Positions 2,921-33,889 of a stretch of 47,285 nucleotides of DNA are shown here, piece by piece. Source of the DNA: Escherichia phage phiKP26. Location of the stretch: the sequence record KC579452, one strand, 5' to 3'. Each line of letters starts with the position of its first letter. The stretch's first letter is position 1. Below the pieces are notes generated by a model. That model was not told the DNA's origin and did not search any database. It worked only from the letters and a program-made list of their open reading frames with translations. Both the position numbers and the translations under genes were made by a program.

Positions 2921-2996
2921 GTTCTGCTGGCGTAACAGGATAACGCAGAGACCTCCTAAGTCTCAGTTACTGGTTCGAGTCCAGTGCGGAACACCA
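2921..2996 (+). tRNA. tRNA-Arg (anticodon CCT, reads AGG)
   Basis: Hand-folded cloverleaf: 7-bp acceptor stem (gttctgc/gcggaac, one G-U), D stem gcgt/acgc with GG in loop, anticodon stem gagac/gtctc, loop ctCCTaa with U33 and A37, T stem actgg/ccagt, T loop ttcgagt, discriminator A, encoded CCA. Confidence 0.8.
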
Positions 2997-3012
2997 AACA
3001 TGGAGCATCCTA

Positions 3013-3198
3013 GTGAATAACTACGAAGTCCGTTTAACTTCCCGCCTAATGGGTCGGCAATGCAAATCTTGCCAGCAATCCTACGAAGGTAGGTTCATTG
3101 CTAAAAGCCCTGAAGAAGCAGTTGCAGCCGCAAAGGCAGCATTTAAGATTGACCTGACAGTCCACAAAGTCAGCGTTGATAAAGTATCCCTCGTTTGA
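3013..3198 (+). CDS. hypothetical protein
   Basis: 61-aa ORF followed by a rho-independent terminator. Confidence 0.4.
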   Translation: MNNYEVRLTSRLMGRQCKSCQQSYEGRFIAKSPEEAVAAAKAAFKIDLTVHKVSVDKVSLV

Positions 3199-3226
3199 GA
3201 TTGGTCATCTCGCAATGCAGTACTTT

Positions 3227-3250
3227 GCCCTCCTTGTGAGGGCTTTTTTN
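3227..3250 (+). terminator. rho-independent terminator
   Basis: gccctc-cttgt-gagggc stem-loop followed by a T6 run. Confidence 0.7.
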
Positions 3251-3297
3251 CGTCCATAGTCATGGTACAATGACTTTTAAAACAGGAGGAATATCAA

Positions 3298-3813
3298 ATG
3301 TCAGAAGAGAAAAAAATTCACCAGAAGATTGGTAACTTCAAGGAGCTTTACAATAAGAAGTATGGCGACATTGCCAATCTTAAGATTAACCACAGATACA
3401 CTCCCGAGCAGGTATTCGACATGGCTGTAAGGTATTTCAGCTGGGCTGAAGAGCAGGCAATTAAAGCTATCGAGACAGCAAGCTTTCAGGGTGTCGTAAC
3501 GGAAAACCTTGTTCACAAGCCGAGGGTATTTACGATAACTGGATTCCAGCTTTTCTGCGGCGTTGGTCATAATGCTATTAGCAAATGGCGCTCATCACCA
3601 GGATTCGATGAAGTTATGGAGTTCGTCGACTCAGTTATCTTTGAACAGAAGTACCAGTTGGGTGTTAACAACATCGTCAACCCTGGACTTATTAGCAAAG
3701 ACCTTGGCATCGATAAGCCGCAAGAGGTTAACATCAACAACGCTTCTAATGCTGTAGTAAACGACGAGGAAGCAATGAAGTCTGCTCTGGCTTCTGTAAT
3801 GGATAAACTATGA
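3298..3813 (+). CDS. putative terminase small subunit
   Basis: 171-aa ORF immediately upstream of and overlapping the large terminase; call is by position only. Confidence 0.5.
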   Translation: MSEEKKIHQKIGNFKELYNKKYGDIANLKINHRYTPEQVFDMAVRYFSWAEEQAIKAIETASFQGVVTENLVHKPRVFTITGFQLFCGVGHNAISKWRSSPGFDEVMEFVDSVIFEQKYQLGVNNIVNPGLISKDLGIDKPQEVNINNASNAVVNDEEAMKSALASVMDKL

Positions 3814-5378
3814 AGACATTGGTTTGGGAAGAAATGACGCCAGCCGAAAAGCTGGCAGTTAAAGTGCTGTCCACTCACAGCTTCGAGGCATTCCTTCGCG
3901 TGTGGTTTCAGCTAAGCCAGGGAGAGCGATACATCCCTAACTGGCATCACAAGTACCTTTGCCGAATAATTGACGAGGTTATTAGTGGCGAGCGTAGGGA
4001 TACCATCATTAACGTGGCTCCCGGGGCCGGGAAGACCGAGATTACTTCAATACACTTCCCTGTATACTCAATGCTTAAGCTAAAGAAGGTGCGAAATCTG
4101 AGCCTCTCATTCTCTGACAGTCTGGTGAAGCGCAACTCTAAGCGTGTTCGCGACCTTATAAAGTCAGCTGAGTTTCAGGAACTATGGCCCTGTAAGTTCG
4201 GCACGTGCAAGGATGACGAGATTCAGGTTCTTGACGAGAGTGGAAAGGTTAGGTTCGAAGCGATATCTAAGGCAATTGGCGGTCAGATTACCGGCGCTCG
4301 TGGCGGTTATATTACTGAAACCTATAGCGGTTGCTTGATGCTTGATGACCCAGACAAGCCAGACGATATGCTCAGCAAGGTAAGGCGAGAAGCTGTCCAC
4401 GTTTTACTTAAAAATNCCATTCGCTCACGTAGGGCGAGTAGCGTTAAAGGTAAAGCTACGCCGATTTTGTCCATCCAGCAAAGGCTTCATACGCAGGATT
4501 CGACGTGGTTCATGACTTCTGGTGGTATGGGTATCGACTTTGATGTATTGAAGATACCGGCGCTGGTCACTGAAGAATATGTGAATGAACTTCCTGACTG
4601 GATTCGTGAGCAGTTCGAGAAGGACGTGCTTTCATCCGAGTACGTCGAGCGAGATGGTGTTAAGTATTACAGCTACTTCCCGCAGAAGGAATCTGCGCAT
4701 GACTTGATGGCAATGTGGGACTCAGATCCGTACACGTTCCTAAGCCAGTACCAACAATCTCCAGTAGCCTTAGGTGGAAACCTGATTAACGTAGATTGGT
4801 TCGTGAGGCTTGACGAGAACAACAGGCCGCCAGTCAAGTATGACTACCGCTTCATTACAGCTGATACTGCCATGACTACGAAGAGTTACAGCGATTATTC
4901 TGTGTTCCAGCTTTGGGGTAGAAAGGATAACAAGATTTATCTTCTGGATATGGTTAGGGGTAAATGGGAGGCTCCAGAGCTTGAGCAAACTCTTCTGAAC
5001 TTTGAGAGTAAGCACCGAGCAGCTAGTAAAACAGATGGTATCTTACGTAAGGTTATTATCGAGAAGAAAGCATCTGGCATAGGGCTTATCCAGTCAGCAG
5101 GTCGAACGATGCGGACTCCTATTGAGCCTTTCGTTCCCGATACAGATAAGTTAACCAGGGTGATGAGCGCATTACCACAGATTAAGGCTGGTAACGTAGT
5201 TCTGCCAGACTCAGCGCCATGGCTTACATCTCTGCTAACTGAGTTCTCGGCGTTCACTGCGGACGATTCACACCCCCATGATGACATTGTAGATACAACA
5301 ACGATGGCAATAAACTGTGAATTGAACTTGAGTGACGACCCAAGAGCTAGGTTAATGAGGCTAGCTGGAGTTAAGTAA
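3810..5378 (+). CDS. terminase large subunit
   Basis: 522 aa; Walker A-like NVAPGAGKTE, Walker B-like LMLDDPD, C-terminal nuclease-like region; canonical position. Confidence 0.85.
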   Translation: MKTLVWEEMTPAEKLAVKVLSTHSFEAFLRVWFQLSQGERYIPNWHHKYLCRIIDEVISGERRDTIINVAPGAGKTEITSIHFPVYSMLKLKKVRNLSLSFSDSLVKRNSKRVRDLIKSAEFQELWPCKFGTCKDDEIQVLDESGKVRFEAISKAIGGQITGARGGYITETYSGCLMLDDPDKPDDMLSKVRREAVHVLLKNXIRSRRASSVKGKATPILSIQQRLHTQDSTWFMTSGGMGIDFDVLKIPALVTEEYVNELPDWIREQFEKDVLSSEYVERDGVKYYSYFPQKESAHDLMAMWDSDPYTFLSQYQQSPVALGGNLINVDWFVRLDENNRPPVKYDYRFITADTAMTTKSYSDYSVFQLWGRKDNKIYLLDMVRGKWEAPELEQTLLNFESKHRAASKTDGILRKVIIEKKASGIGLIQSAGRTMRTPIEPFVPDTDKLTRVMSALPQIKAGNVVLPDSAPWLTSLLTEFSAFTADDSHPHDDIVDTTTMAINCELNLSDDPRARLMRLAGVK

Positions 5379-10634: not shown

Positions 10635-11582
10635 ATGACTATCAAACTTGACGCTTTCGAGCAAGAAAAGATCACTAACCACCTGCGAGCCATGGGCGTT
10701 GATAAGGCTGATGCAGCTGGTATCTGGACCGTGAAGCAGCTCACCGCAAGCCTGAATAAAGCTTACGAAACCGAGTACGACCAGAACTCCGTGGTAAACC
10801 TGTTCCCTGTAAGCAATGAAATTCCTGGCTACGCTAAGTACTTTGAGTATCCGGTATTTGATGGCGTTGGTATTGCTCAGATCGTGGCTGACTACACTGA
10901 TGACCTGCCGCTGGTTGATGCTTTGGCAACTGAACGTCAGGGTAAAGTTTNCCGTTNCGGTAACGCGTTCCTGATTTCCATTGATGAANTTAAAGTTGGT
11001 CAGGCTACCGGTCAGTCTCTGTCTACTCGCAAGCAGTCTCTTGCTTTCGAAGCTCATGACAAGCTGCTTGATAAACTGGTGTGGTCCGGCTCTACTGCTC
11101 ACGGCATCCCGAGTGTGTTCGACTACCCGAACATCAACAACGTTGTTAGCGGTGGTTCATGGTCTCAACCAACTACAGCAGTAAGCGATATTACAAGCCT
11201 GCTGGATATCATTGAGACTTCAACTAATGGTCAGCACCGTGCAACTCACCTGCTTCTGCCTACTACCGCCCGTCGTATTATGCAGAACCTGGTGCCTGGC
11301 ACTTCTGTTAGCTACGGTGAGTTCTTCCGTCAGAACAATAGCGGCGTAACCGTTGAGTTCGTTCAGTACCTGAATGATTACAATGGCACTGGTACCTCTG
11401 CAGCTATCGCTTACGAGAAAGACCCTAACAACATGGCAATCGAGATTCCGGAAGCGACTAACGCACTGCCGGCTCAGCCGCGCGACTTGCACTTCCGTGT
11501 TCCGGTAACTTCTAAAGCAACCGGTTTGATCGTGTTTAGGCCTTTAACTATGGCTGTCATGAAGGGCATTACTTTTGCTTAA
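10635..11582 (+). CDS. major capsid protein
   Basis: ~316 aa (MTIKLDAFEQEK...) with a strong upstream promoter and a terminator immediately downstream; head-module position. The ORF track start at 10596 is probably 5' UTR. Confidence 0.65.
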   Translation: MTIKLDAFEQEKITNHLRAMGVDKADAAGIWTVKQLTASLNKAYETEYDQNSVVNLFPVSNEIPGYAKYFEYPVFDGVGIAQIVADYTDDLPLVDALATERQGKVXRXGNAFLISIDEXKVGQATGQSLSTRKQSLAFEAHDKLLDKLVWSGSTAHGIPSVFDYPNINNVVSGGSWSQPTTAVSDITSLLDIIETSTNGQHRATHLLLPTTARRIMQNLVPGTSVSYGEFFRQNNSGVTVEFVQYLNDYNGTGTSAAIAYEKDPNNMAIEIPEATNALPAQPRDLHFRVPVTSKATGLIVFRPLTMAVMKGITFA

Positions 11583-18866: not shown

Positions 18867-18867
18867 A

Positions 18868-21286: not shown

Positions 21287-21335
21287 TTAGTGTAGAATGG
21301 CACAAATGGTTAAACAAACAACGAGGTTATATGAT

Positions 21336-24300
21336 ATGGCCGATTTGCCAAAGATTTATGGAAGCAAGGGTGGTAGCAAGAAGCCGCACACACCTGTAGA
21401 GCAAGAAGATAACCTGATTTCACTAAACAAGATTAAGGTGCTACTGGCTGTAGCTGATGGAGAGGTTGATTCTAGTTTCTCGCTCAAGGATGTTTACCTT
21501 GCTGACGTTCCGGTGCAAAACCAGGATAACTCATTCAACTATGAAGGTGTTACGGCAGAGTTTAGGTCTGGTACTCAGTCGCAGGATTACATCGCAGGAC
21601 TAGATGGCGCAGCTTCAGAGATTCAGGTTAGTCGTGAAATCAATAATGACACACCTTATATCATCGCAGTCAACAACAGTCAGCTATCAGCAATTCGAGT
21701 CAAGCTGTTCTGGCCTCGACTCGTTAAGCAAGAAGAGAATGGAGATTTAAATGGCACAACATGTGAATATGCAATCGATTTATCAGTTAATGGCTCAGCG
21801 TACACTGAGTATATCAGAGGCGTGGCTAACGGTAAAACTACAACAGGTTACGACCGCAGTATCAGGGTTAACTTACCAGCCGAGTTTAGCAGCGCTCTTG
21901 TTCGTATTAGGAAGTTAACGCCAGACTCAACAAATAGCACCCTGGTTAACGGGATGCAGATCACAACCTATCAGGAAGTAATCGATGCTAAATTCCGCTA
22001 CCCTCTTACGGCACTTGTTTACGTGGAGTTCAGTTCTGACCTGTTCCCTAACGGGATCCCAACTATAGCCATTAAGAAAAAGTGGAAACTTATCCGCGTA
22101 CCGACAAACTACAATCCAGAGACAAGGGCTTATAGCGGCACATGGAATGGAACTTTTAAAATGGCATGGTCTGACAACCCGGCCTGGGTTTTATATGATC
22201 TGGTGGTTAGTCAGCGCTACGGATTGGATCAGCGAGAGCTTGGTGTAGAGATTGATAAGTGGGGTCTGTATGAAGCAGCGCAATTCTGCGACCAGATGGT
22301 TCCTGATGGTAAGGGTGGAATGGAGCCGCGATATACTTGTAACGTTGTCATTCAGCAGAAAGTGGAAGCGTATCAGCTTATTCGTGACATCTGTTCTATC
22401 TTCCGCGGTTTAACCTTCTATGATGGTGAGCAAATCGGGATTGTTGTAGACAGGCCGCGCCAGCCAAGCTATGTGTTCACTAATGATAACGTTGTTGATG
22501 GATTGTTTAACAGGACATTCTCTAGCGACAAGAGCCTTTACACGACAGCCAACGTTCAGTTTGATGACGAGCAGAACAACTACCAGCAGGATGTCGAGCC
22601 AGTATTCGACTTAGAAGCAACACGCCGATTTGGTTACAACCCTGTAGACTTGACTGCAATTGGCTGCGTAAGGCGAAGCGAGGCTAACCGTCGCGGGCGT
22701 TGGTTGCTGAAAACAAACCTTCGCAGTGAAACGGTAACGTTCACAACTGGCCTCGAAGGCATGATTCCTATGATTGGTGATGTAATTGCCGTTAATGACC
22801 AGGCTTGGTCAAGCAACTACACATTAAACCTTTCGGGTCGAATTGTTGAAGCTACAGGTTTGCAGGTGTTCGTGCCATTCGCTATTGATGCTGACCCTGG
22901 CGACAGGATTTTAATCAACAAGCCAGATGGGAGCCCAGAGTACAGGACTATCGCTTCAGTATCTGCCGATAAGTTGACGCTTGAACTGAATACAGCATTC
23001 AGCTTCACACCTCAGCCGGATACGGTATTTGCAATCGACAAGCAGAATCTGGCGTTGCAGCAATACGTTGTGACAGGAATTCAAAAAGCAAACACGGACG
23101 GCGAGGATTCATTCCAGTACAGCATCACTGCGGTGCAGTATGACCCGAACAAGTATGACGAGATTGACTATGGTGTGAATATTGACGACAGGCCAACAAG
23201 TATCGTTGACCCTGACAGGATTTTACCACCTGAAAATATCACCGTTACTAGTTACAGCAAGGTAGTTCAGGGCTTAAGCGTTGAGACGATGGTTATTGGT
23301 TACGACAAGGTGCAGTATGCGAAAACATACAACGTACAGTGGCGCAAGAATAACGGCAACTGGATTAACGTACCTGAGACAGCTAATACCGAGGTTGATA
23401 TTGAAGGCATTTACGCTGGCATCTACGACGTCAGGGTTCGCGCCGTAACTGACCAGAAATCAGTGTCGGCATGGTCAGATATCACGACAGTTAGCCTGAC
23501 TGGCAAGATTGGGGAACCTTCGGAGCCGCCTGTAATTACGGCTTCTGATGATGAGGTTTTCGGGATTAGGGTTAAGTGGGGCTTCCCTACTGACTCAGCT
23601 GATACCGCTTACACCGAGCTTCAGCAGGTTCCTGATAATGGTGACGGAACATATACACCGGAGAACGCGTCACTGCTTACGCTGGTTCCGTATCCTCAAT
23701 ACGAATATTGGCACACCACTCTACCAGCAGGTAACGTGAGGTGGTACAGGGCCAGGATTATTGACAGGATAGGTAACGTATCTCCGTGGACTGATTTTGT
23801 CAGAGGTATGGCATCCGATGATGTAAGTGCGATCATTGGTGACATCAAGGTTGATATCGAAAACTCTGATGGTTACAAGTATCTTCTCCAGAACGCCATT
23901 GATGCAAATACTGACATCCAGAATCAGGCCGAAGCTATAATCGAGAACGCCCTGGCAAATGATACTGACGTACGCGTTATGACAAAGGAGAATCTTAACA
24001 GGAAGGCGGAATATCGCCAGGCAGTAAGTTTGATTGCTGATGAAACTCAGGCCCGTGTGGACGCTCTCACGCAGCTTAAAGCGCAGATTGATGATGAGAT
24101 TGTTGGTCAGATTACGACAATTGAAACCGCACTTGCTACGGAGACCGAAGCCAGGGCTACAGCTGATACTCAATTAAGCTCAAGGCTTGGTGATAACGAG
24201 GCGGCTTTGAATCAGAAGCTTGACTCTTATGCCACGGTCGAAGGTGTTGGTGTTCAGTACGGCGTTAAGCTCGGCCTGAAGTACAATGGGGTTGAGTACG

Positions 24301-24722
24301 GCGCTGGAATGAGCATGGAGTTAACTGGTAGTGGTGGAAATGTTCGTAGTCAGTTTATTTTTGATGCTAACAGGTTCGCAATCAGTAACGGCATTAGTTC
24401 TGGTTCCGGTCAGTGGTCGCTACCTTTCGTTGTGGAGAATAACCAGGTGTTCATTCAGAGCGCGGTGATTCAGGATGGTTCAATTACTAACGCGAAGATT
24501 GGTAACAGGATTCAATCAAACAACTATGTTGCTGGTAGTGCTGGTTGGGCAATTGATAAATCTGGTTTTGCTGAGTTAAGTAACGCTACCGTTCGCGGTA
24601 GTTTGTACGCTAACAATGGTAACTTCGCGTTTAACGGAACCAACAATACTGTCGTAATAAACAATAACGGCATAACTGTTAATTTACCAAATGGAGGTAG
24701 GGTAGTGGTTGGAGTATGGTAA
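21336..24722 (+). CDS. tail tip / host specificity protein (lambda gpJ-like)
   Basis: ~1128 aa; N-terminus MADLPKIYGSKGGSKKPHTPVEQEDNL resembles J-family N-termini; position after the I-like gene. Confidence 0.8.
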   Translation: MADLPKIYGSKGGSKKPHTPVEQEDNLISLNKIKVLLAVADGEVDSSFSLKDVYLADVPVQNQDNSFNYEGVTAEFRSGTQSQDYIAGLDGAASEIQVSREINNDTPYIIAVNNSQLSAIRVKLFWPRLVKQEENGDLNGTTCEYAIDLSVNGSAYTEYIRGVANGKTTTGYDRSIRVNLPAEFSSALVRIRKLTPDSTNSTLVNGMQITTYQEVIDAKFRYPLTALVYVEFSSDLFPNGIPTIAIKKKWKLIRVPTNYNPETRAYSGTWNGTFKMAWSDNPAWVLYDLVVSQRYGLDQRELGVEIDKWGLYEAAQFCDQMVPDGKGGMEPRYTCNVVIQQKVEAYQLIRDICSIFRGLTFYDGEQIGIVVDRPRQPSYVFTNDNVVDGLFNRTFSSDKSLYTTANVQFDDEQNNYQQDVEPVFDLEATRRFGYNPVDLTAIGCVRRSEANRRGRWLLKTNLRSETVTFTTGLEGMIPMIGDVIAVNDQAWSSNYTLNLSGRIVEATGLQVFVPFAIDADPGDRILINKPDGSPEYRTIASVSADKLTLELNTAFSFTPQPDTVFAIDKQNLALQQYVVTGIQKANTDGEDSFQYSITAVQYDPNKYDEIDYGVNIDDRPTSIVDPDRILPPENITVTSYSKVVQGLSVETMVIGYDKVQYAKTYNVQWRKNNGNWINVPETANTEVDIEGIYAGIYDVRVRAVTDQKSVSAWSDITTVSLTGKIGEPSEPPVITASDDEVFGIRVKWGFPTDSADTAYTELQQVPDNGDGTYTPENASLLTLVPYPQYEYWHTTLPAGNVRWYRARIIDRIGNVSPWTDFVRGMASDDVSAIIGDIKVDIENSDGYKYLLQNAIDANTDIQNQAEAIIENALANDTDVRVMTKENLNRKAEYRQAVSLIADETQARVDALTQLKAQIDDEIVGQITTIETALATETEARATADTQLSSRLGDNEAALNQKLDSYATVEGVGVQYGVKLGLKYNGVEYGAGMSMELTGSGGNVRSQFIFDANRFAISNGISSGSGQWSLPFVVENNQVFIQSAVIQDGSITNAKIGNRIQSNNYVAGSAGWAIDKSGFAELSNATVRGSLYANNGNFAFNGTNNTVVINNNGITVNLPNGGRVVVGVW

Positions 24723-24728
24723 ATGATT

Positions 24729-24749
24729 AAGCCCCTTTCGGGGCTTTTN
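24729..24749. terminator. bidirectional terminator between convergent genes
   Basis: aagcccc-tttc-ggggctt hairpin followed by T-run; lies between the J-like stop and the probable stop of the minus-strand gene. Confidence 0.65.
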
Positions 24750-24752
24750 CTT

Positions 24753-25724
24753 TNAGTAGAAGTTGGGAATAAATGGAAGTGCCATTGATATGTTTGTATC
24801 AAATGGGAATTGCGCGCCAGTTTGAGTTGAATAGTTACCTATAACAGTGCCTGGGACGGCTCTAACTGAACCTCCAGACATGCAAACACCCTTGTATCGT
24901 AAGTTATTATATCCACCAGTGACTCTAGTTGTCGCTCCGCATCTAAGTATTGGGAAGAACCCACCATTCACCGACTGGTAACCATTATTAATCTGCATAA
25001 ATCCACTTAGAACAAATGGCCTCCTGACGCTAGAGAAAACTATCTGCCCAGCGCTGTTTGATATCGTTAAACCCGGACCAGCTACTGGAGGTGTATTATT
25101 GAAAATAACTAACTGAACGTAAGTACTTGCAGCAACATCATCAATCCCATTGTACGTTATATCCCTACACCATATCGTACTACCATCACTTTCAAGTGAT
25201 ACGTTTNGGTTATCCCATTTACCAAANGGAATGCCGCCAACTGGCAATGATGCAGAGCCATTAACCTGGATGCCACCAACCCAAGCAGCAGTCATTAATC
25301 TGGAATTACTTGATATCGCTGTAAAGTCAGTCGAGTTCTCAACAAGGACACCGGGGCTTGATTGTGATGATGCTGGTAAAATCTCAAAGCACTGACCGCC
25401 AAACTGCAATATGCGACCATTAGCGCCGTTAAAGTTACTTAATGTAATCCTTCNAACCCCATCATTAACCTTCGAGAACCCATTCATGTAATAAACTTCT
25501 GGTATAACATCATATGCATCAACATAAACAGCCTGAGTTGGCAGGCAGAATGCTGTTGAGCCAGGAGTCATAGTCAGACCGAAATCCCATGATGATGCTG
25601 GTGAGCTTAACCCGCTAGTGTTTATTGAACCAGTCACGGCTGGAACTCTCAAGCCAGCTGTAATTTCCATTGCTGGCCTTCCGTCATTCAAATCTATCAA
25701 GATACCTTGAGGCATTATTTCCAC
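24753..25724 (-). CDS. Ser/Gly/Asn-rich beta-rich protein; candidate receptor-binding or tail-fibre accessory protein (function uncertain)
   Basis: ~323 aa; start overlaps the lipoprotein stop. Stop placed at a TNA codon at 24753-24755 just before the terminator; the track end at 24684 reads through an N. Confidence 0.5.
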
Positions 25725-25960
25725 TCCTTTGAGCCGTGATCTGCAACTGAGCCGCCGTAGCCTCCACCAACCTTTGACTCAATGCCAGCATAACGAATAT
25801 CAACCTCTCCAGCTGCAACAATAACACCACCTTTCCACTTAGCTACGCAAACATCACCCGCCTGAGTCGCACACCATCCGTCAGGGCGCGGACCAGAAGA
25901 ACAACCTACCGTCATGATTGCTGCTGCTGCGATGATTGCTGATTTGATGAAGTTAGTCAT
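25715..25960 (-). CDS. small lipoprotein, Cor/Llp-like superinfection-exclusion candidate
   Basis: 81 aa from the ATG at 25960 with RBS (aaggaa): [22 protein letters not shown]..., i.e. signal peptide plus lipobox-like Cys; Gly-rich mature part. Confidence 0.55.
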
Positions 25961-26010
25961 TTTGTATTCCTTAGTCAGTATGTTTCGTTTCGATGGAGTA
26001 ACTATAGCAA

Positions 26011-26054
26011 AGGCTTCTGCTGTAGTCTTTAGCAAATCGTGCTATTTTATATAC
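26011..26054 (-). promoter_or_regulatory. palindrome/-10 promoter-like element driving the lipoprotein operon
   Basis: Minus-strand reading: tagcacgatttgcta-N23-tatagt-tactccatcgaaacgaaa, then RBS and ATG at 25960. Confidence 0.45.
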
Positions 26055-26520
26055 GCGTAACCGATGTAACTCGATGTATACAATCTCATCCGCTGAAAAT
26101 TGTATACGCTTTTTACGCGAAGATACGCATTAGTTACATTTATAAATCCTTATATAATAAGGGTTTAGAGTATTATTATTATTATATATATTACTATGTA
26201 TATCTTGTAACTACTCTCTATAGCTATGTTGTTGTGTTTTACTAAAATACTATGTTTGATTTCCTGTTAAGGAGAAAATGCATATATATATAGATAGGGT
26301 GCAAATTTGGTGGATACATTGGTTACAAGGGTTACATTCAGCATTCATGCGGCGTACAGAGCATCAAAGCGTATTTATGTGAGTTTTACAGCTATATACA
26401 AAATAGCACGAATAATCAAAAAAAATGATTCCCGATTAATCACAGGGGAGTAAACAACTNAAGCGGTAATACTTGTGATGNATAAATTGGAACACAATTT
26501 ACAGGAATGAAAACANATCC
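26040..26520. promoter_or_regulatory. AT-rich non-coding switch region A (phased ACGC boxes, (TAT)5 tract, divergent promoters); candidate origin
   Basis: ~480 bp without credible ORFs between divergent operons; ACGC boxes at 26105/26116/26125; tattattattattat at 26171-26185; GGTTACA x2 near 26320; palindrome element at its left edge. Confidence 0.5.
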
Positions 26521-27451: not shown

Positions 27452-28420
27452 ATGAGCTTCAAGGTTTACACTAGCGACGAGTTAACCAACGAAGCCTACC
27501 ACAAGGAGTCAGACCATGTGTCTGGCTCTGGTCTGGCTCACATCTTCTCAACTTGCCCCGCTGCTTATAAGTTTGCAGAGCATGATGATAGCAATAAGGC
27601 TTTAAAGTTCGGTACATTAGCCCACACGGTTATTCTTGAAAACTCTGTATTCGATGCGACTTACTATCGCCAGCCAGCGCAAGAAGAGTTTGATGATCTG
27701 ATTACTAGCAAGACTGCTTTGGCAACTCGGTTGAAGTCGATGGGTATTGCTGGAACATCTGGTAAGGATTATCCAGAATTAATGGAGATTCTGGCGCTGA
27801 GCGGTGAATCACTTAACGTATGGTGGGATATTCAGCGCTCTAACGAGGTTAAAGCGAACGGTCGCGAGATTGTATCAGCTAAAGACTTTGACACAGTACA
27901 TGCGATGCGAGAGGTGCTGTGTGGCATTCCTGCATACAATGCGATAGTGAACAGTAAAACCGCTCAGCGAGAGTTATCAATCTTCGGTGAGATTAACGAG
28001 TGCGGCGTTAAGGTTCGTCTTGACCATGTCGATGTCGTTGATGATGTAGTTTATATCCGTGACTACAAGACGACTAGCGACGCATCTCCATCTGGATTTG
28101 GGAGATTGGCCTTCAAGCATGGTTACTTGCTAAAAATGGCGCTTCAGCATGATTTGTTTGTTCGCGCCTTTAATGAGAAGCGTCGAGTTGTTGTTCAGCT
28201 TCTTTGCCAGGAAANGAAAAGCCCATTCCTTCCAATGTGCTACACGATAACAAAAGAGCACTTAAAGGTTGGTAGATTGCAATACATGAGCGCCCTATCC
28301 ACATACAAGCAATGCAAGAAACTTGATATTTGGCCTGGTTACGGATTTGGCGAAACAGAGATGGAACTGCAAGTTCCTGAGTATGAGATGAAGAAGTACG
28401 AAGATAGCACGAATAGCTAA
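27452..28420 (+). CDS. PD-(D/E)xK family exonuclease (recombination exonuclease)
   Basis: 322 aa; D...VVDDVVYIRDYKTT motif characteristic of PD-(D/E)xK nucleases; immediately upstream of Erf. Confidence 0.6.
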   Translation: MSFKVYTSDELTNEAYHKESDHVSGSGLAHIFSTCPAAYKFAEHDDSNKALKFGTLAHTVILENSVFDATYYRQPAQEEFDDLITSKTALATRLKSMGIAGTSGKDYPELMEILALSGESLNVWWDIQRSNEVKANGREIVSAKDFDTVHAMREVLCGIPAYNAIVNSKTAQRELSIFGEINECGVKVRLDHVDVVDDVVYIRDYKTTSDASPSGFGRLAFKHGYLLKMALQHDLFVRAFNEKRRVVVQLLCQEXKSPFLPMCYTITKEHLKVGRLQYMSALSTYKQCKKLDIWPGYGFGETEMELQVPEYEMKKYEDSTNS

Positions 28421-29632: not shown

Positions 29633-32348
29633 ATTGTGACGTTACATCACCATTCAAACTCAAAANTACTGATTGTTTNGTCAAATCAACACCACCTTTA
29701 AGCGAATAGTATCTTGAAGCGCAATAATCAGACTCATCTGAATAGCTGCCAACGTAAACACCAAAGCCATATCCAGAGCAAGCTACATCACCAGCGCCTT
29801 GACCTGAATACATGGTTACATAGTTACCAGCTGTTGTTAGTATAGGTCTGACATCAATATCTATATACTGAGAATCAAATGACCTTCTAACTCTAAATCC
29901 AGTATTCAGGTTTAAGATGCTCCACCAAACCTTACCAGATACATCAAAACCAAGAGCAATATTGTAAGTACCACCATTGACCATTCTTGATGAGACTGGC
30001 AACACACCTGATAAAACTCTTGTTTCACCTGATGCTGATATTAACAATGAGACACTGTGTTCTCCTGATGCCATCACGTTATACTGCAAGTAAAGAGCAT
30101 TACTATTAACTCCAAAACCAGTCCCTATAGCTATAAGGTTAAAGTCTTCAGCAACAGTTATGGTCGGCGATATATTGCATGTAGCGGTGAAACCTAGTGA
30201 CGGGTCAAATCCAGTGCATATAATCTTATCTTTATTTGCCTGTGAAAGCCTTAGCCAATATTGCTGCCCAACTGATGATGCCGCTGCGGCGAATACTGGT
30301 GTATTAGAGACCCCATCAAAAGCTGAAGTGTCGTTTGCTGGCTTAATTCTTGTCTTCCTTTTGTCTATCAGTCCGTTTATCTTCAGGTTTCCTGAATACT
30401 CAGCAACATAGTTAGTGTCCCCTGAGAAATTTGGGCCAAAGTAACCAGATTCAACAACCCCATCGATCACAACATCAGATCTTGAGTCAAGGAATCTGAA
30501 GTTGCCAGCGGAAGTTGGCCTTCCATCGCCATTGTTAGATACATAGTTAAGCCCAACAAAACCATAGATTCTTACAGAGCTATTTGAAAACGAAACGTTA
30601 TAATCTCTGTAGTTTGAGTTTATGCTGTTCCTGTTACTATTTAATCCATTAAATACCACATTTCTAGAGTTTACAATTCTAACACCGTCACCACCGCAAT
30701 CCTGCGCCTCTATAGCTGACATGGTGATGTTTTGGCAGTTATCAATCAGGATGCCATAAGCATCATCAAGCTCATTATAAGCCGACCAACCCGACCAAAT
30801 AAACTTACCGCCAACAATCCTACAGTTTCCGGCATTCCTAAGTATTAGACAATTTCTTCCACAGGTGTTTACCTGTATGTTATTCCATGTGAAGTCTGTT
30901 GTTTCGTTAATCAATCCGCCTTTTTTNATGTGCTGAATAAGAACATCATCAAGAACAGGAGAGTAGTTACCAGCAGCAACGAAAATTCCGTAAACATCAA
31001 ACCCAGCAATGTGAGTGTTTCTTATCGTTAAGTCCCTCCTAGGGTCAGCACCAGTGTTGAATGGGTAATTGGTTGATAACCCAGTCGGCGTAGGGATGTA
31101 AATCCCAGCAGTACCATCAGTAAACGCCGTGTCTTGCTGGGCTCCAGTGCCGTAAAGAGCAATACCTTCAATATGAATGAGCGAGCAAGAATCAGAAACC
31201 TCAATTAAAGAGCCAATTGATGAACTAAGCTGAGTTATTCTTGACTTGTGCTTGCCAAAACCAATTATAGAGCAAGATTTATTTCTCATTACCAGGTTTG
31301 ATGCCATGTAGTCGCTATCAAGCTTTAATGCCAGCCCGGAGTCTAGGATTTGCTGTATCTGTGTCGTTGAGTCTGATGTCGATGACTTAATGGCCCCAAG
31401 TTCGCAAGGCGACAGCTCCCCGCTACAGATTCTTTCCCAGTAATAACCTGTACTTGATTCAAAAACCAATCCTGAAGATAATCCATATGATAAAGATGAC
31501 TCCGGCTTACAAACAAAGAACCCACCACCATAACCAAGACCACCAATGTAAGAATCACAATAGACAACCTCTAAGTCATAAATTCTGGCAGAGTTTGTCA
31601 TTGCTGATACTGATTCAAACCTTCTTGTGTAATCCTGTTGAATCCAAAAACCAACTCCAATACCACCTGTAGACTGTGGTGATGAGTTTTGTGGTATGGA
31701 TTTTGGAACGCTACCAGACCAGTAATAAACCGAAACATGATTGTCATTAANGTAAATTGCAGGCTGAGTTCTTGAGTTTATTTCTCCACCATTTGAGAAA
31801 TCAACTACAAGAGCAGATGACACAGAAGCCGCAGCAGAGCTTGCTATTGTAGCTGAAGAGGAAGCCGAGTTAGCGCTACTTTCAGCTAACTGCCTATCAG
31901 AAGATACCTGATCTTTGTCAGAAGAAACTTGAGCAGCATCAACAGCAACTTGCTGAGATTGCATGTTGACATTATTTACGCTTTGCTGGAAAGAATCAGA
32001 ATCAAATTGATTAAAAGCATCAACTGCCGCTGCAACCTCTGTTTCACGGGACTGATAATAACGAAGTGTCTCAGCAACGTCCTGAGCAAGACCTTGGACA
32101 GTAATTCCGTCATGAGCAAGGATTGAGTACTGAGTCCCAGCTGGCGCAGTAAAACCTTTATCATTGAATACACGAATCTCTGTATCGCTTAAAATCTCAG
32201 CGATAGTAACAATGCTTGTCGGGGTGGTGTTAAAAATCATTGTTGCGCCAACTCGGATTAGCGTTAGTGGTTGCCTCCACGTGGTGCCAACACCAGTTAC
32301 AGTTCCGTCAGCTGCAAGCGATGCAGTTCCAGCGTCATAAATTGCCAT
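29631..32348 (-). CDS. tail fibre / tailspike protein with probable beta-helix (depolymerase-like) central domain
   Basis: ~905 aa; N-terminal fibre-anchor-like domain, Ser/Ala-rich linker, long Asn/Gly/Ser-rich repetitive beta region; stop placed at a TNA codon at 29631-29633. Confidence 0.65.
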
Positions 32349-33402: not shown

Positions 33403-33876
33403 TTACTCTTTAGCTTTTCGTGCTTCTTCTCTTTCTTTCTTAACCTTTCGCCATGATTTACGCTGCGGCTTGGTTGCTAACTCAGCTTCTGTAACAACTC
33501 GAAGCATCTGACGCTTCTTGCATCGCAGTGTTAGAGGCTTGCCGTTACCGTCGAACTGTAAATCAGGTCGGCAGAATGTAGCCCTGAACCCCTCGCCAGT
33601 TCGCTTATATCGATTATGCGCAAGCTGTGCGCCGCGAGCTGAAATCATTCCCCGCTTACACCATTCTTCTACAGCCTGGCGCGTAACCTTTAGCTGCTTA
33701 GCTAGATTGGCCTTGCTGCCGTAGAAGTCCAATACAATCTCAAGGCGCGCCCTTAATCCCGCTCTCACTTCATCCTTTAGTACATAGTAACCTGATGGAC
33801 GCTTACGCGGCTTCTTGTCTTCTGTGCGAATTGTTCCGTTGTTACCATTAAGAGTACGCTTGTCAATTGAATCCAT
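33403..33876 (-). CDS. Cro/YdaS-like HTH DNA-binding protein with basic N- and C-terminal tails
   Basis: 157 aa; LAKQLKVTRQAVEEWCKRGMI...CRPDL matches the YdaS/Cro-type HTH pattern; divergent from the helicase across an intergenic region holding the palindrome element. Confidence 0.55.
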   Translation of the reverse strand: MDSIDKRTLNGNNGTIRTEDKKPRKRPSGYYVLKDEVRAGLRARLEIVLDFYGSKANLAKQLKVTRQAVEEWCKRGMISARGAQLAHNRYKRTGEGFRATFCRPDLQFDGNGKPLTLRCKKRQMLRVVTEAELATKPQRKSWRKVKKEREEARKAKE

Positions 33877-33889
33877 TTTCTCACCTCAA

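Follow-up and report, generated by a model that had tools for sequence, protein, structure and literature searches.

A predicted LptD-type host-recognition cassette of exclusion lipoprotein and receptor-binding protein in Escherichia phage phiKP26

Introduction

Cassettes of the kind analysed here are already described in T1-like coliphages; work from 2021 to 2026 has reported their mechanism, their structures and the logic of the locus. Downstream of gpJ lie the genes of a receptor-binding protein (RBP) and of the exclusion protein that matches it, and LptD is the receptor associated with the rtp44/rtp45 allele (PMC8594841; bioRxiv 2026.04.02.716166). A cryo-EM structure shows Rtp45 at the periplasmic face of LptDE (PDB 9RPS), and in the papers examined its exclusion role is founded on this structure, not on a plating assay (PMC12685063). 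Phage OzMSK fails on two lptD loop-deletion mutants and is LptD-dependent by experiment (PMC13035648), and the corresponding Rogue1 protein has been modelled as an LptD RBP (Black et al. 2025, PMC13035648). The tip loops that contact the receptor are the least conserved part of the RBP (PMC13035648). Bas01 requires NupG in addition to LptD, with the NupG requirement mapping to a J domain and not to the RBP (bioRxiv 2026.04.02.716166).

A family of direct repeats upstream of genes has been described for phage TLS, with its role left open between a stoperator, an enhancer site and an UP-like element (German et al. 2024, PMC11447400). Repeats of Rogue1, T1 and Rtp are mentioned there as unpublished only (PMC11447400).

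Here, we analysed a locus of Escherichia phage phiKP26 (KC579452) within a window of 47,285 nucleotides, which is the whole stretch of DNA under study. With a probability of about 0.92, we consider the locus to be an LptD-type host-recognition cassette of the small T1-like siphophages, consisting of an exclusion lipoprotein and an RBP. This reading was obtained from sequence comparison.

Organisation of the locus

The following features were assigned:

21297 to 24722, plus strand: J-like tail-tip protein, 1141 aa (Pfam FNIII-A_GpJ, Phage-tail_3 and Phage_Tail_Tip)
24729 to 24746, no strand assigned: GC-rich hairpin AAGCCCC-TTTC-GGGGCTT between the J-like and RBP genes
24753 to 25715, minus strand: predicted RBP gene, 320 aa, DUF6453 (PF20051), from Pfam, 9rpt_C and identity to the OzMSK, Rogue1 and Rtp44 proteins
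25715 to 25960, minus strand: predicted lipoprotein gene, 81 aa, Rtp45 family (PF24052), ATG at 25960, from Pfam, 9rps_D and identity to Rtp45
25901 to 25960, minus strand: predicted signal peptide and lipobox, residues 1-20, with Cys20 as mature start (lipobox rule; core KD15 = 2.03)
25961 to 26520, no strand assigned: AT-rich divergent control region, 32% GC, between the cassette and the recombination genes, with the repeat promoter and a weak sigma-70-like match
26001 to 26006, minus strand: -10-like hexamer TATAGT, 21 nt downstream of the repeat
26028 to 26045, minus strand: 18-nt core of the Drexlerviridae direct repeat, ATAGCACGATTTGCTAAA, with 0 mismatches to the consensus ATAGCACNNNTTGNTAAA

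The phage is a Rogunavirus (Drexlerviridae), a genus with Rogue1 as its type phage. Between positions 24600 and 26300, the locus is 99.6% identical to phage C119. The layout is identical in AHP24, C119 and RTP. The minus-strand pair, with the lipoprotein gene upstream and the RBP gene downstream, follows one promoter region and points at the end of the J-like gene, on which the RBP gene converges with a gap of 30 nt. Judged by their Pfam scores, both open reading frames are certainly genes.

The stop codon of the lipoprotein gene (TAA, 25717-25715) and the start codon of the RBP gene (ATG, 25715-25713) have one base in common (aaaTAATGcct), which agrees with the overlap reported in an earlier note on this DNA. 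The same order with a 1-nt TAATG overlap was found in RTP and in the Dhillonvirus TheodorHerzl. In that note, the gene of a possible virion protein also followed the exclusion gene and ran counter to the tail genes; this is correct and is the usual layout for the cassette.

The hairpin in the intergenic gap has energies of -16.3 and -14.7 kcal/mol on the two strands (z about -3.9). Its U-tract is good for the J (plus-strand) transcript only, the minus-strand tail being UUAAUCAUUU. The hairpin is thus a predicted intrinsic terminator, strong for the plus strand and weaker for the minus strand. The annotation of AHP24 places a terminator on both strands at this hairpin. A bidirectional terminator had been proposed: the hairpin is indeed present between both genes, whereas its U-tract on the minus strand is weak.

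Within the final 100 alignment columns, the J-like protein has 77% identity with Rtp43 versus 42% with T1 gp33. Its C-terminus is therefore of the predicted LptD-associated type (Rtp43) and not of the FhuA type represented by T1 gp33. The J-like protein is the presumed docking partner of the RBP.

The exclusion lipoprotein

The 81-aa protein matches PF24052 with 129.8 bits (cut-off 27, E=3.6e-38), its residues 1-80 covering profile positions 1-80 of 80. It also matches phrog_4281 (E=1.4e-34) and chain D of PDB entry 9RPS (9rps_D), in which Rtp45 is bound to LptDE-LptM (E=2.4e-33). Identity to Rtp45 is 73-74% over the full length and 71% for the mature part (BLAST). NCBIfam holds no family for either the lipoprotein or the RBP. 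In C119, a TTG start yielding 106 aa is annotated for the lipoprotein; we rejected this start, as homologues begin with MTN or MKT, which gives 81 aa.

The N-terminus features Lys6, a hydrophobic core, the motif TVG-C20 and a serine at position +2, in agreement with a PROSITE PS51257-type rule; this check was rule-based and did not use a trained predictor. A signal peptide with a lipobox-like cysteine, as read earlier from the sequence, is borne out by this rule. The residue at +2 is serine in both the 81-aa protein and Rtp45, which predicts sorting of the lipoprotein to the outer membrane.

Cys20, Cys30 and Cys38 are kept at identical positions in both proteins, and Cys30 and Cys38 form a disulfide in the Rtp45 structure 9RPS (PMC12685063). 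Residues 30-35 read CATQAG in the 81-aa protein and CATQAS in Rtp45; in 9RPS, these Rtp45 residues form a strand that pairs with LptD 318-323 (PMC12685063). The hairpin region is likewise conserved relative to its Rtp45 counterpart KWKNGVVVPAGEVDVRY. Relative to Rtp45, the 81-aa protein carries a 5-residue insertion near its C-terminus. The identification of the 81-aa protein as a putative receptor-blocking superinfection-exclusion lipoprotein of the Rtp45 family is supported. The suggestion that the small protein blocks the phage's own receptor gains its footing from Rtp45, a homologue with a solved LptDE complex.

The receptor-binding protein

The 320-aa protein matches PF20051 over its full length with 456.7 bits (cut-off 25, E=4e-137). 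Residues 2-320 align with residues 2-321 of 9rpt_C, the Oekolampad RBP on LptDE, at approximately 41% identity (E=9.3e-67). Identity is 98% to the Rogue1 protein (Rogue1_0039), 87.5% at 100% coverage to the OzMSK 'receptor binding protein' (OzMSK_038), 40% to Rtp44 and 39.9% at 100% coverage to the RBP of JeanPiccard (Bas02). One study recognised LptD RBPs by comparison with those of phages proven to depend on LptD, requiring >30% identity at >99% coverage (bioRxiv 2026.04.02.716166), and the 320-aa protein lies above both values. Fold and family of the two cassette proteins are settled by full-length sequence matches to experimentally solved homologues.

Glycine, serine and asparagine account for 11.9%, 10.3% and 7.5% of the residues. 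No transmembrane segment was found in the 320-aa protein (maximum KD19 0.86), and the label 'membrane protein / moron' (PHROG, RefSeq) was rejected for want of a hydrophobic segment. The stop codon at 24755-24753 reads TNA, with an N in the sequence, and is TAA in C119 and AHP24. A length of 323 aa had been given previously, based on an in-frame upstream GTG at 25724; this version was discarded, because homologues begin with MPQG or MAQG (MxQGI), resulting in 320 aa.

An assignment as RBP attached to the J-like tip is supported, and the protein is probably located in the virion. Gel-band proteomics of virions in the near-identical AHP24 group yielded seven abundant proteins, with the 320-aa homologue not among them at this shallow sampling. 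Of two roles considered earlier for the large protein, that of an RBP is favoured by its full-length homology to an RBP solved on LptDE, whereas that of a 'second envelope-targeting factor' found no support.

The repeat/TATAGT promoter element

A palindrome/TATAGT element had been noted upstream of the lipoprotein gene. It is present and heads the operon, with the qualification that its palindromic part is the dyad TAGCA-N5-TGCTA inside the published 21-nt direct repeat. We examined TTGCTATAGT as the repeated unit and rejected it, as it was not enriched; the true repeat is the upstream 18-mer. The lipoprotein ATG lies 85 nt from the start of the repeat, the hexamer TATAGT is followed by tactCCATCGAAAC, and the repeat occupies approximately positions -50 to -33 of the putative promoter. 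No -35 hexamer was recognisable at the element.

At up to 3 mismatches, the repeat has 24 matches in the window, compared with 6.6 ± 2.4 in shuffled sequences. About 15 are good copies, each co-oriented with the next gene. Copies precede replication genes and small terminal genes, and are found within the structural region at 18867 and at 11582, the latter without a -10 box. Across this phage, RTP and T1, a TAnnnT hexamer follows at exactly 20 nt in 37 of 52 repeats and at 21 nt in 6 of 52, against a background of 1.6% per position. Behind the hexamer come a conserved CATCGAAAC and, next, a ribosome-binding site. The fixed spacing of 20-21 nt between repeat and -10 box supports a function as promoter. 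This spacing and the missing -35 hexamer are shown here and go beyond the paper on the TLS repeat.

A scan for canonical sigma-70 promoters gave fewer matches than in shuffled sequences, none of them at the repeat element. One weak match upstream, TATACA-N16-AATAAT at 26202-26175, coincides with the promoter annotated in AHP24. This match, together with the open role of the repeat in its first description (PMC11447400), could be taken to mean that repeat and TATAGT form a stoperator or another protein-binding site, while the cassette is transcribed from a different promoter in the AT-rich region, for example the one at 26202-26175. We regard this as unlikely, given that a TAnnnT hexamer stands 20-21 nt downstream in 43 of 52 repeats of three phages, and that CATCGAAAC and a ribosome-binding site follow it, which is the signature of a promoter unit and not of a roadblock. 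As to how a promoter at the repeat would work, we tentatively suggest, as possible but not probable, a promoter class specific to Drexlerviridae with a good -10 box, no -35 hexamer and an 18-nt box, strictly conserved and in part dyad-symmetric, to which a factor from phage or host binds (a class-II-type activator, or a switch resembling sigma appropriation), rather than a passive UP-like element. If this were true, T1-like phages would have an undescribed transcription programme, and the RBP, a virion protein, would be made under non-late control common with the exclusion protein. A search of the literature for transcript or temporal expression data on Drexlerviridae found none, the RNA-seq of one candidate paper covering a T5-like phage only. 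With copies in the structural region as well, the 'early' class given to the element in the earlier note is an inference and not a finding, and the same holds for the timing and strength of the promoter for the cassette.

Receptor and proposed mechanism

The two genes would be translationally linked and read from one promoter toward the end of the J-like gene. After its export, the 81-aa prolipoprotein would receive a lipid on Cys20 and reach the inner leaflet of the outer membrane. Like its homologue Rtp45, it may wedge itself between LptE and LptM against the LptD barrel, on the side of the periplasm, and push a beta-hairpin up the LptD lumen, thereby displacing extracellular loop 4. LptD-dependent phages would then be unable to dock, so that the infected cell is safe from superinfection and progeny are not wasted on cell debris. 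The RBP is predicted to be a signal-less protein of two beta-sandwiches. Its conserved N-terminal base would be held by non-covalent contacts on the C-terminal tip of the J-like protein, and its loop-bearing tip would insert into an open state of LptDE, as the irreversible step that triggers DNA delivery. LptD binding by these two particular proteins is expected on the strength of their homologues.

The lipoprotein had previously been called Cor/Llp-like, and it could be related to Cor/Llp by descent and inactivate FhuA, like its counterparts in T1, phi80 and T5, with the large protein as an unrelated accessory or membrane moron. Equal size, a lipobox and a position beside tail-tip genes fit such an assignment, as do the PHROG label of the large protein and the GenBank record of H154, which names a homologue 'Cor superinfection exclusion protein'. 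Against it, the full-length alignments to T1 Cor and T5 Llp are limited to the signal peptide and CSS (9.3 and 3.3 bits, respectively), and the mature protein gave no BLAST match to Cor or Llp even at E<=100. Pfam assigns PF24052 alone to the lipoprotein, and a moron of the membrane is at odds with a large protein that has no hydrophobic segment and is homologous to a solved RBP along its whole length. We consider common descent with Cor/Llp extremely improbable and rejected the homology, since signal peptides alone align. The term holds as an analogy: a small lipoprotein beside receptor-recognition genes is, as far as these alignments tell, a strategy in common with Cor/Llp and not a matter of ancestry.

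Another question is whether the architecture is the known one, yet the Rogue1/OzMSK subtype of RBP uses a different or additional outer-membrane protein, which the lipoprotein would block instead of or besides LptD. The RBP is only about 40% identical to those of Oekolampad and Rtp, which have been studied best, and its tip loops are variable; therefore, a shifted binding mode or an additional receptor is possible, and Bas01 with NupG and LptD sets a precedent for a dual requirement. However, OzMSK, whose RBP is 87.5% identical, is blocked by two lptD loop mutants, the NupG requirement of Bas01 lies outside its RBP, and the lipoprotein is 74% identical to an Rtp45 observed on LptDE. A receptor that replaces LptD or is needed besides it thus appears improbable, and we retain the LptD-type cassette as the preferred reading.

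Significance

The gain is one of annotation. In the C119 group, the 'membrane protein' becomes an LptD-type RBP and the 'putative lipoprotein' a superinfection-exclusion lipoprotein of the Rtp45 family, both as predicted assignments. For the phage itself, the essential protein LptD is the predicted terminal receptor. This is relevant to phage cocktails targeting O157: phages with a lipoprotein of the PF24052 family are expected to exclude one another, and resistance is expected to arise via small changes in lptD loops at little fitness cost. The remaining thread is regulation, namely the timing of the cassette and the working of the repeat-type promoter.

Comparison with known systems

The closest system is rtp45-rtp44 of Escherichia phage Rtp, which has the same two families, gene order, 1-nt TAATG overlap, convergence on the J homologue and an upstream element of the repeat type. 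It differs in that Rtp44, at 40% identity, is an RBP of a different subtype, and in that the promoter element upstream of rtp45 is a degenerate copy (ATAGCACGAATAGATAAA ... TACTAT). OzMSK_038 and Rogue1_0039, which are predicted or validated LptD RBPs, show no substantial difference, and the protein analysed here is another member of their subtype.

The Oekolampad (Bas18) RBP, solved on LptDE (PDB 9RPT/9RPW/9RQI), shares full-length homology and a locus downstream of gpJ, but Oekolampad is a Dhillonvirus and does not belong to Drexlerviridae. Its exclusion lipoprotein bas18_0026 is 35% identical to Rtp45 (PMC12685063). In the related Dhillonvirus TheodorHerzl, the repeat element is missing and the promoter is of an ordinary sigma-70-like kind. 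The 21-nt direct repeat of TLS, aaATAGCACnnnTTGnTAAAA, resembles the one found here in its consensus and in its orientation to the downstream gene, while its distance to the start codon is approximately 76 nt, compared with 85 nt in this phage.

T5 Llp/pb5 (oad) and T1 Cor follow the logic of this cassette: next to the RBP, a small outer-membrane lipoprotein is encoded that acts from the periplasm to put the phage's own receptor out of action. Their receptor is FhuA, whereas that of phiKP26 is predicted to be LptD. Llp works by long-range allostery, Rtp45 by steric displacement of a loop (PMC12685063). The genes llp and oad of T5 point away from each other at a common promoter region, whereas the two genes form one tandem operon here. 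T1 has cor by itself on the opposite strand, and its candidate RBP genes come after J and share its strand, unlike the arrangement in phiKP26.

Gene structure

The minus strand at 26054-24753 contains two genes headed by one upstream element, and the observation of a two-gene operon is confirmed. The features are:

26045-26028, minus strand, repeat core ATAGCACGATTTGCTAAA, containing TAGCA-N5-TGCTA
26006-26001, minus strand, TATAGT, after a 21-nt spacer and followed by tactCCATCGAAAC
25960 (ATG) to 25717-25715 (TAA), minus strand, lipoprotein gene, 81 aa
25715-25713 (ATG) to 24753, minus strand, receptor-binding protein (RBP) gene, 320 aa
21297-24722, plus strand, gene of the J-like tail-tip protein, convergent on the cassette

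The 81-aa protein has a basic N-terminus, a hydrophobic core and a lipobox Cys20 with Ser at position +2. The second protein is rich in Gly, Ser and Asn; it bears no lipoprotein signal, and no hydrophobic segment was found in its 320 residues. The lipoprotein stop and the RBP ATG have one base in common (TAATG), and GGAG precedes this ATG. The earlier note was right about the overlapping genes for an 81-aa and a Ser/Gly/Asn-rich product, but not about a length of 323 aa for the latter, which was obtained because an in-frame GTG nine bases upstream was taken as the start; all homologues begin with M-x-Q-G-I. The RBP stop codon reads TNA owing to one of the 149 N characters in the window; C119 and AHP24, both near-identical phages, have TAA here. 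The N characters are spread over the window, with five in the cassette (24749, 24754, 25207, 25227 and 25454), one of them in this stop codon.

In RefSeq (NC_042046 gp22), the C119 lipoprotein is 106 aa long and starts at a TTG equivalent to 26035 (window 25715-26035), a position within the promoter element. An ATG yielding 76-81 aa is the start of Rtp45, AHP24_26 and TheodorHerzl gp26, and the C119 start is therefore regarded as over-extended.

A hairpin (AAGCCCC-TTTC-GGGGCTT) lies in the 30-nt interval between the convergent J-like and RBP genes. For J, this supposedly shared terminator is a good intrinsic one; the minus-strand operon is left with a hairpin followed by a poor U-tract.

Across the cassette region, identity is 99.6% with Escherichia phage C119 and 96-99% with phiJLA23, AHP24 and Rogue1, all members of the genus Rogunavirus, family Drexlerviridae (T1-like siphophages). 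Records of the C119 group (C119, AHP24) label the RBP gene "membrane protein" or "hypothetical protein" and the lipoprotein gene "putative lipoprotein". Records named 'Pseudomonas phage PsgS01F' (PP134917) and 'Campylobacter phage A118/A121/A127' also carry an E. coli-type cassette. PsgS01F shows 85-89% protein identity to the cassette, and its length of 44,679 bp is also that of a record for an E. coli phage; the host labels of these records look doubtful.

Identity of the two proteins

The lipoprotein matches Pfam family PF24052 (Phage_lipoprotein; 129.8 bits) and the 320-aa protein PF20051 (DUF6453; 456.7 bits). Over its full length, the latter also matches chain C of 9RPT, 9RPW and 9RQI, the RBP of phage Oekolampad (Bas18) on LptDE (E = 9.3e-67, about 41% identity), while the lipoprotein matches chain D of 9RPS (E = 2.4e-33); all four structures stem from Dunbar et al. 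(PNAS 2025, PMC12685063). In 9RPS, the superinfection exclusion lipoprotein Rtp45 of phage Rtp is located on the periplasmic side of the outer-membrane protein LptD, between LptE and LptM, and its hairpin shifts extracellular loop 4 of LptD outwards by up to 20 Å, which prevents RBP binding (PMC12685063).

The RTP genome was fetched as reference for comparison with Rtp45 and Rtp44. Identity between the window lipoprotein and Rtp45 is 73-74%; the window protein keeps the lipid-anchoring Cys20 and both disulfide-forming cysteines, Cys30 and Cys38, is nearly the same in the LptD-pairing strand 30-35 and the hairpin region, and has one 5-residue insertion close to the C-terminus. Identities of the window RBP are 40% to Rtp44, 98% to Rogue1_0039 and 87.5% to the OzMSK "receptor binding protein". 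OzMSK fails to infect two lptD loop-deletion mutants, and the Rogue1 protein was modelled as an LptD RBP (Black et al. 2025, PMC13035648). In these phages, the locus that follows gpJ encodes an RBP and its cognate exclusion protein, the rtp44/rtp45 allele corresponding to LptD (Maffei et al. 2021, PMC8594841). This logic was confirmed across 64 T1-like phages, and the J C-terminus was found to co-vary with RBP type (bioRxiv 2026.04.02.716166). Over its final 100 alignment columns, the window J shows 77% identity to Rtp43 compared to 42% to T1 gp33, in keeping with this co-variation.

With homologues solved on LptDE and key residues kept, the previously proposed pairing of a receptor-blocking lipoprotein with an RBP holds, and the interpretation of the cassette as exclusion lipoprotein plus RBP is supported. 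Such a system has been described before, in as much detail as atomic structures for close homologues, and the literature already identifies the Rogue1/OzMSK subtype itself as an LptD RBP.

Proposed mechanism and conservation

Judging from the solved homologues, the lipoprotein would be lipidated, sorted to the outer membrane and lock LptD in a conformation unable to accept the RBP. The conserved N-terminal base of the RBP would attach to the J tip, and adsorption would become irreversible when its loop-bearing end inserts into LptDE. When the window is compared with RTP, the lipoprotein (74%) is much more conserved than the RBP (40%); J ranges from 69 to 91% per 100-column block. Such values fit a blocker that recognises an essential protein on its conserved periplasmic side, with an RBP tip that evolves or is exchanged. 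The contrast between the two proteins predicts cross-exclusion among all LptD-dependent phages.

Distant homologues of both proteins are present in Gordonclarkvirinae (Kuravirus-type) podophages, in the case of Bas90 in one genome:

L008 (Bas90) 2944-3975, Bas90_0015, 343 aa, just after the tail-fibre genes, 24% identity to the RBP over nearly the full length
L010 (Bas90) 23432-23731, Bas90_0100, Rtp45-like lipoprotein, early-gene cluster
L009 (ES17) 2426-2707, ES17_104, Rtp45-like lipoprotein, early-gene cluster

The sole PDB match of Bas90_0015 is the LptD RBP 9rpt_C (E = 1.9e-9). The lipoprotein has an LTGC lipobox and an RPDGWCA..GVCV..GE.D.RY motif, and matches Rtp45 in 9rps_D (E = 7.7e-16). 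On this basis, Kuravirus-type podophages may use LptD; no link to LptD was found in the literature examined, and in BASEL-II an LPS-core terminal receptor is assumed for them.

Probable repeat-type promoter

The "palindrome/TATAGT" element claimed for the cassette is present, made of the repeat, 21 nt and TATAGT. The 18-mer has 24 matches in the window at ≤3 mismatches (6.6 expected), and every one of about 15 good copies is co-oriented with the next gene. Copies of the Drexlerviridae repeat ATAGCACnnnTTGnTAAA, with a -10-like hexamer 20-22 nt downstream and then ...CATCGAAAC..., start at:

457, 1573, 18867, 28404, 33889, 36285, 36970, 37656, 39211 and also 11582, plus strand
43286, 43484, 44438, 45273 and 26045, minus strand

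German et al. 2024 (PMC11447400) counted 21 copies of aaATAGCACnnnTTGnTAAAA in phage TLS, cited T1, Rtp and Rogue1 as unpublished, and offered a stoperator, an enhancer site or an UP-like element as alternatives for its function. Among 52 repeat copies of the window, RTP and T1, TAnnnT occurs exactly 20 nt downstream in 37 and at 21 nt in 6 more, against a background of 1.6% per position, and a -35 hexamer is absent. This fixed spacing without a -35, which is added here to the published description, points to a promoter unit with a box spanning about -50 to -33. A second transcript might conceivably start farther upstream, at a weak sigma-70-like match (26202-26175) that is the promoter annotated in AHP24.

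Assignment of the cassette promoter to an "early" class, as in the earlier note, is unproven: besides standing in front of small terminal genes and of replication/recombination genes, the repeat occurs in the structural region (18867, 11582), and no transcript data for Drexlerviridae were found in the literature. A degenerate copy lies ahead of rtp45, and none ahead of T1 cor. An obvious candidate for a factor reading the repeat box is a conserved 157-aa protein (33403-33876, minus strand), a homologue of the 'transcriptional regulator' T1 gp23/rtp52 with a sub-threshold NCBIfam match only, whose gene is divergent from the repeat-type promoter at 33889.

At 11582, 43484 and 44438, a GC-rich terminator-like hairpin lies within the repeat-to-hexamer spacer. 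At some of the repeat-type promoters, the -10 box is spanned by an inverted repeat, e.g. GATGGGGTA-TAGT-TACCCCATC, AGGGCATT..AATGCCCT and GGGAGTAA..TTACTCCC:

window 457 and 39211
RTP 3077, 29628 and 37795
T1 2269, 3535, 4344, 4864, 47633 and 46158

Of 46 copies, 9 have arms of 6 nt or longer (2.2 expected, p = 3e-4), and the arms vary in sequence between copies; the cassette promoter lacks this feature, a candidate operator or hairpin in read-through RNA. Between the cassette and the recombination genes, 25961-26520 is AT-rich (32% GC), contains a run of TATATATAATAATAATAATA and is enriched in GTTAC/GTAAC (7 vs 1.55 expected), as are RTP 27918-28259 (5 vs 0.83) and T1 29851-30377 (8 vs 1.25). 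Such motifs may represent iterons or sites for a regulator, or perhaps an origin.

Comparison with known systems

A structural protein co-transcribed with an exclusion gene against the tail-gene direction, considered unusual before, is real. The order of exclusion gene, then RBP gene, with a one-base overlap is found in the window, RTP and the Dhillonvirus TheodorHerzl, and is therefore the conserved norm for the LptD cassette. In Klebsiella Weberviruses (Solomon, L007 2007-2234; TAH8), an Rtp45-like lipoprotein (49-54% identical) is encoded about 10 kb from the RBP homologue, in the replication cluster, where VRR-NUC and Dam genes flank it; the exclusion gene can thus be uncoupled from the RBP and sit among non-structural genes.

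The description of the lipoprotein as "Cor/Llp-like" is apt as a functional analogy but not as a family relationship, as T1 Cor and T5 Llp align through the signal peptide only and BLAST of the mature lipoprotein against both gave no match even at E ≤ 100. According to the published mechanisms, T5 Llp acts by allostery through FhuA, whereas Rtp45 acts by steric loop displacement (PMC12685063). T1 has a solitary cor on the strand opposite to J, with the candidate RBP genes placed behind J and read in its direction. The T5 genes llp and oad form a divergent pair, whereas in the LptD cassette the RBP gene lies downstream of the exclusion gene.
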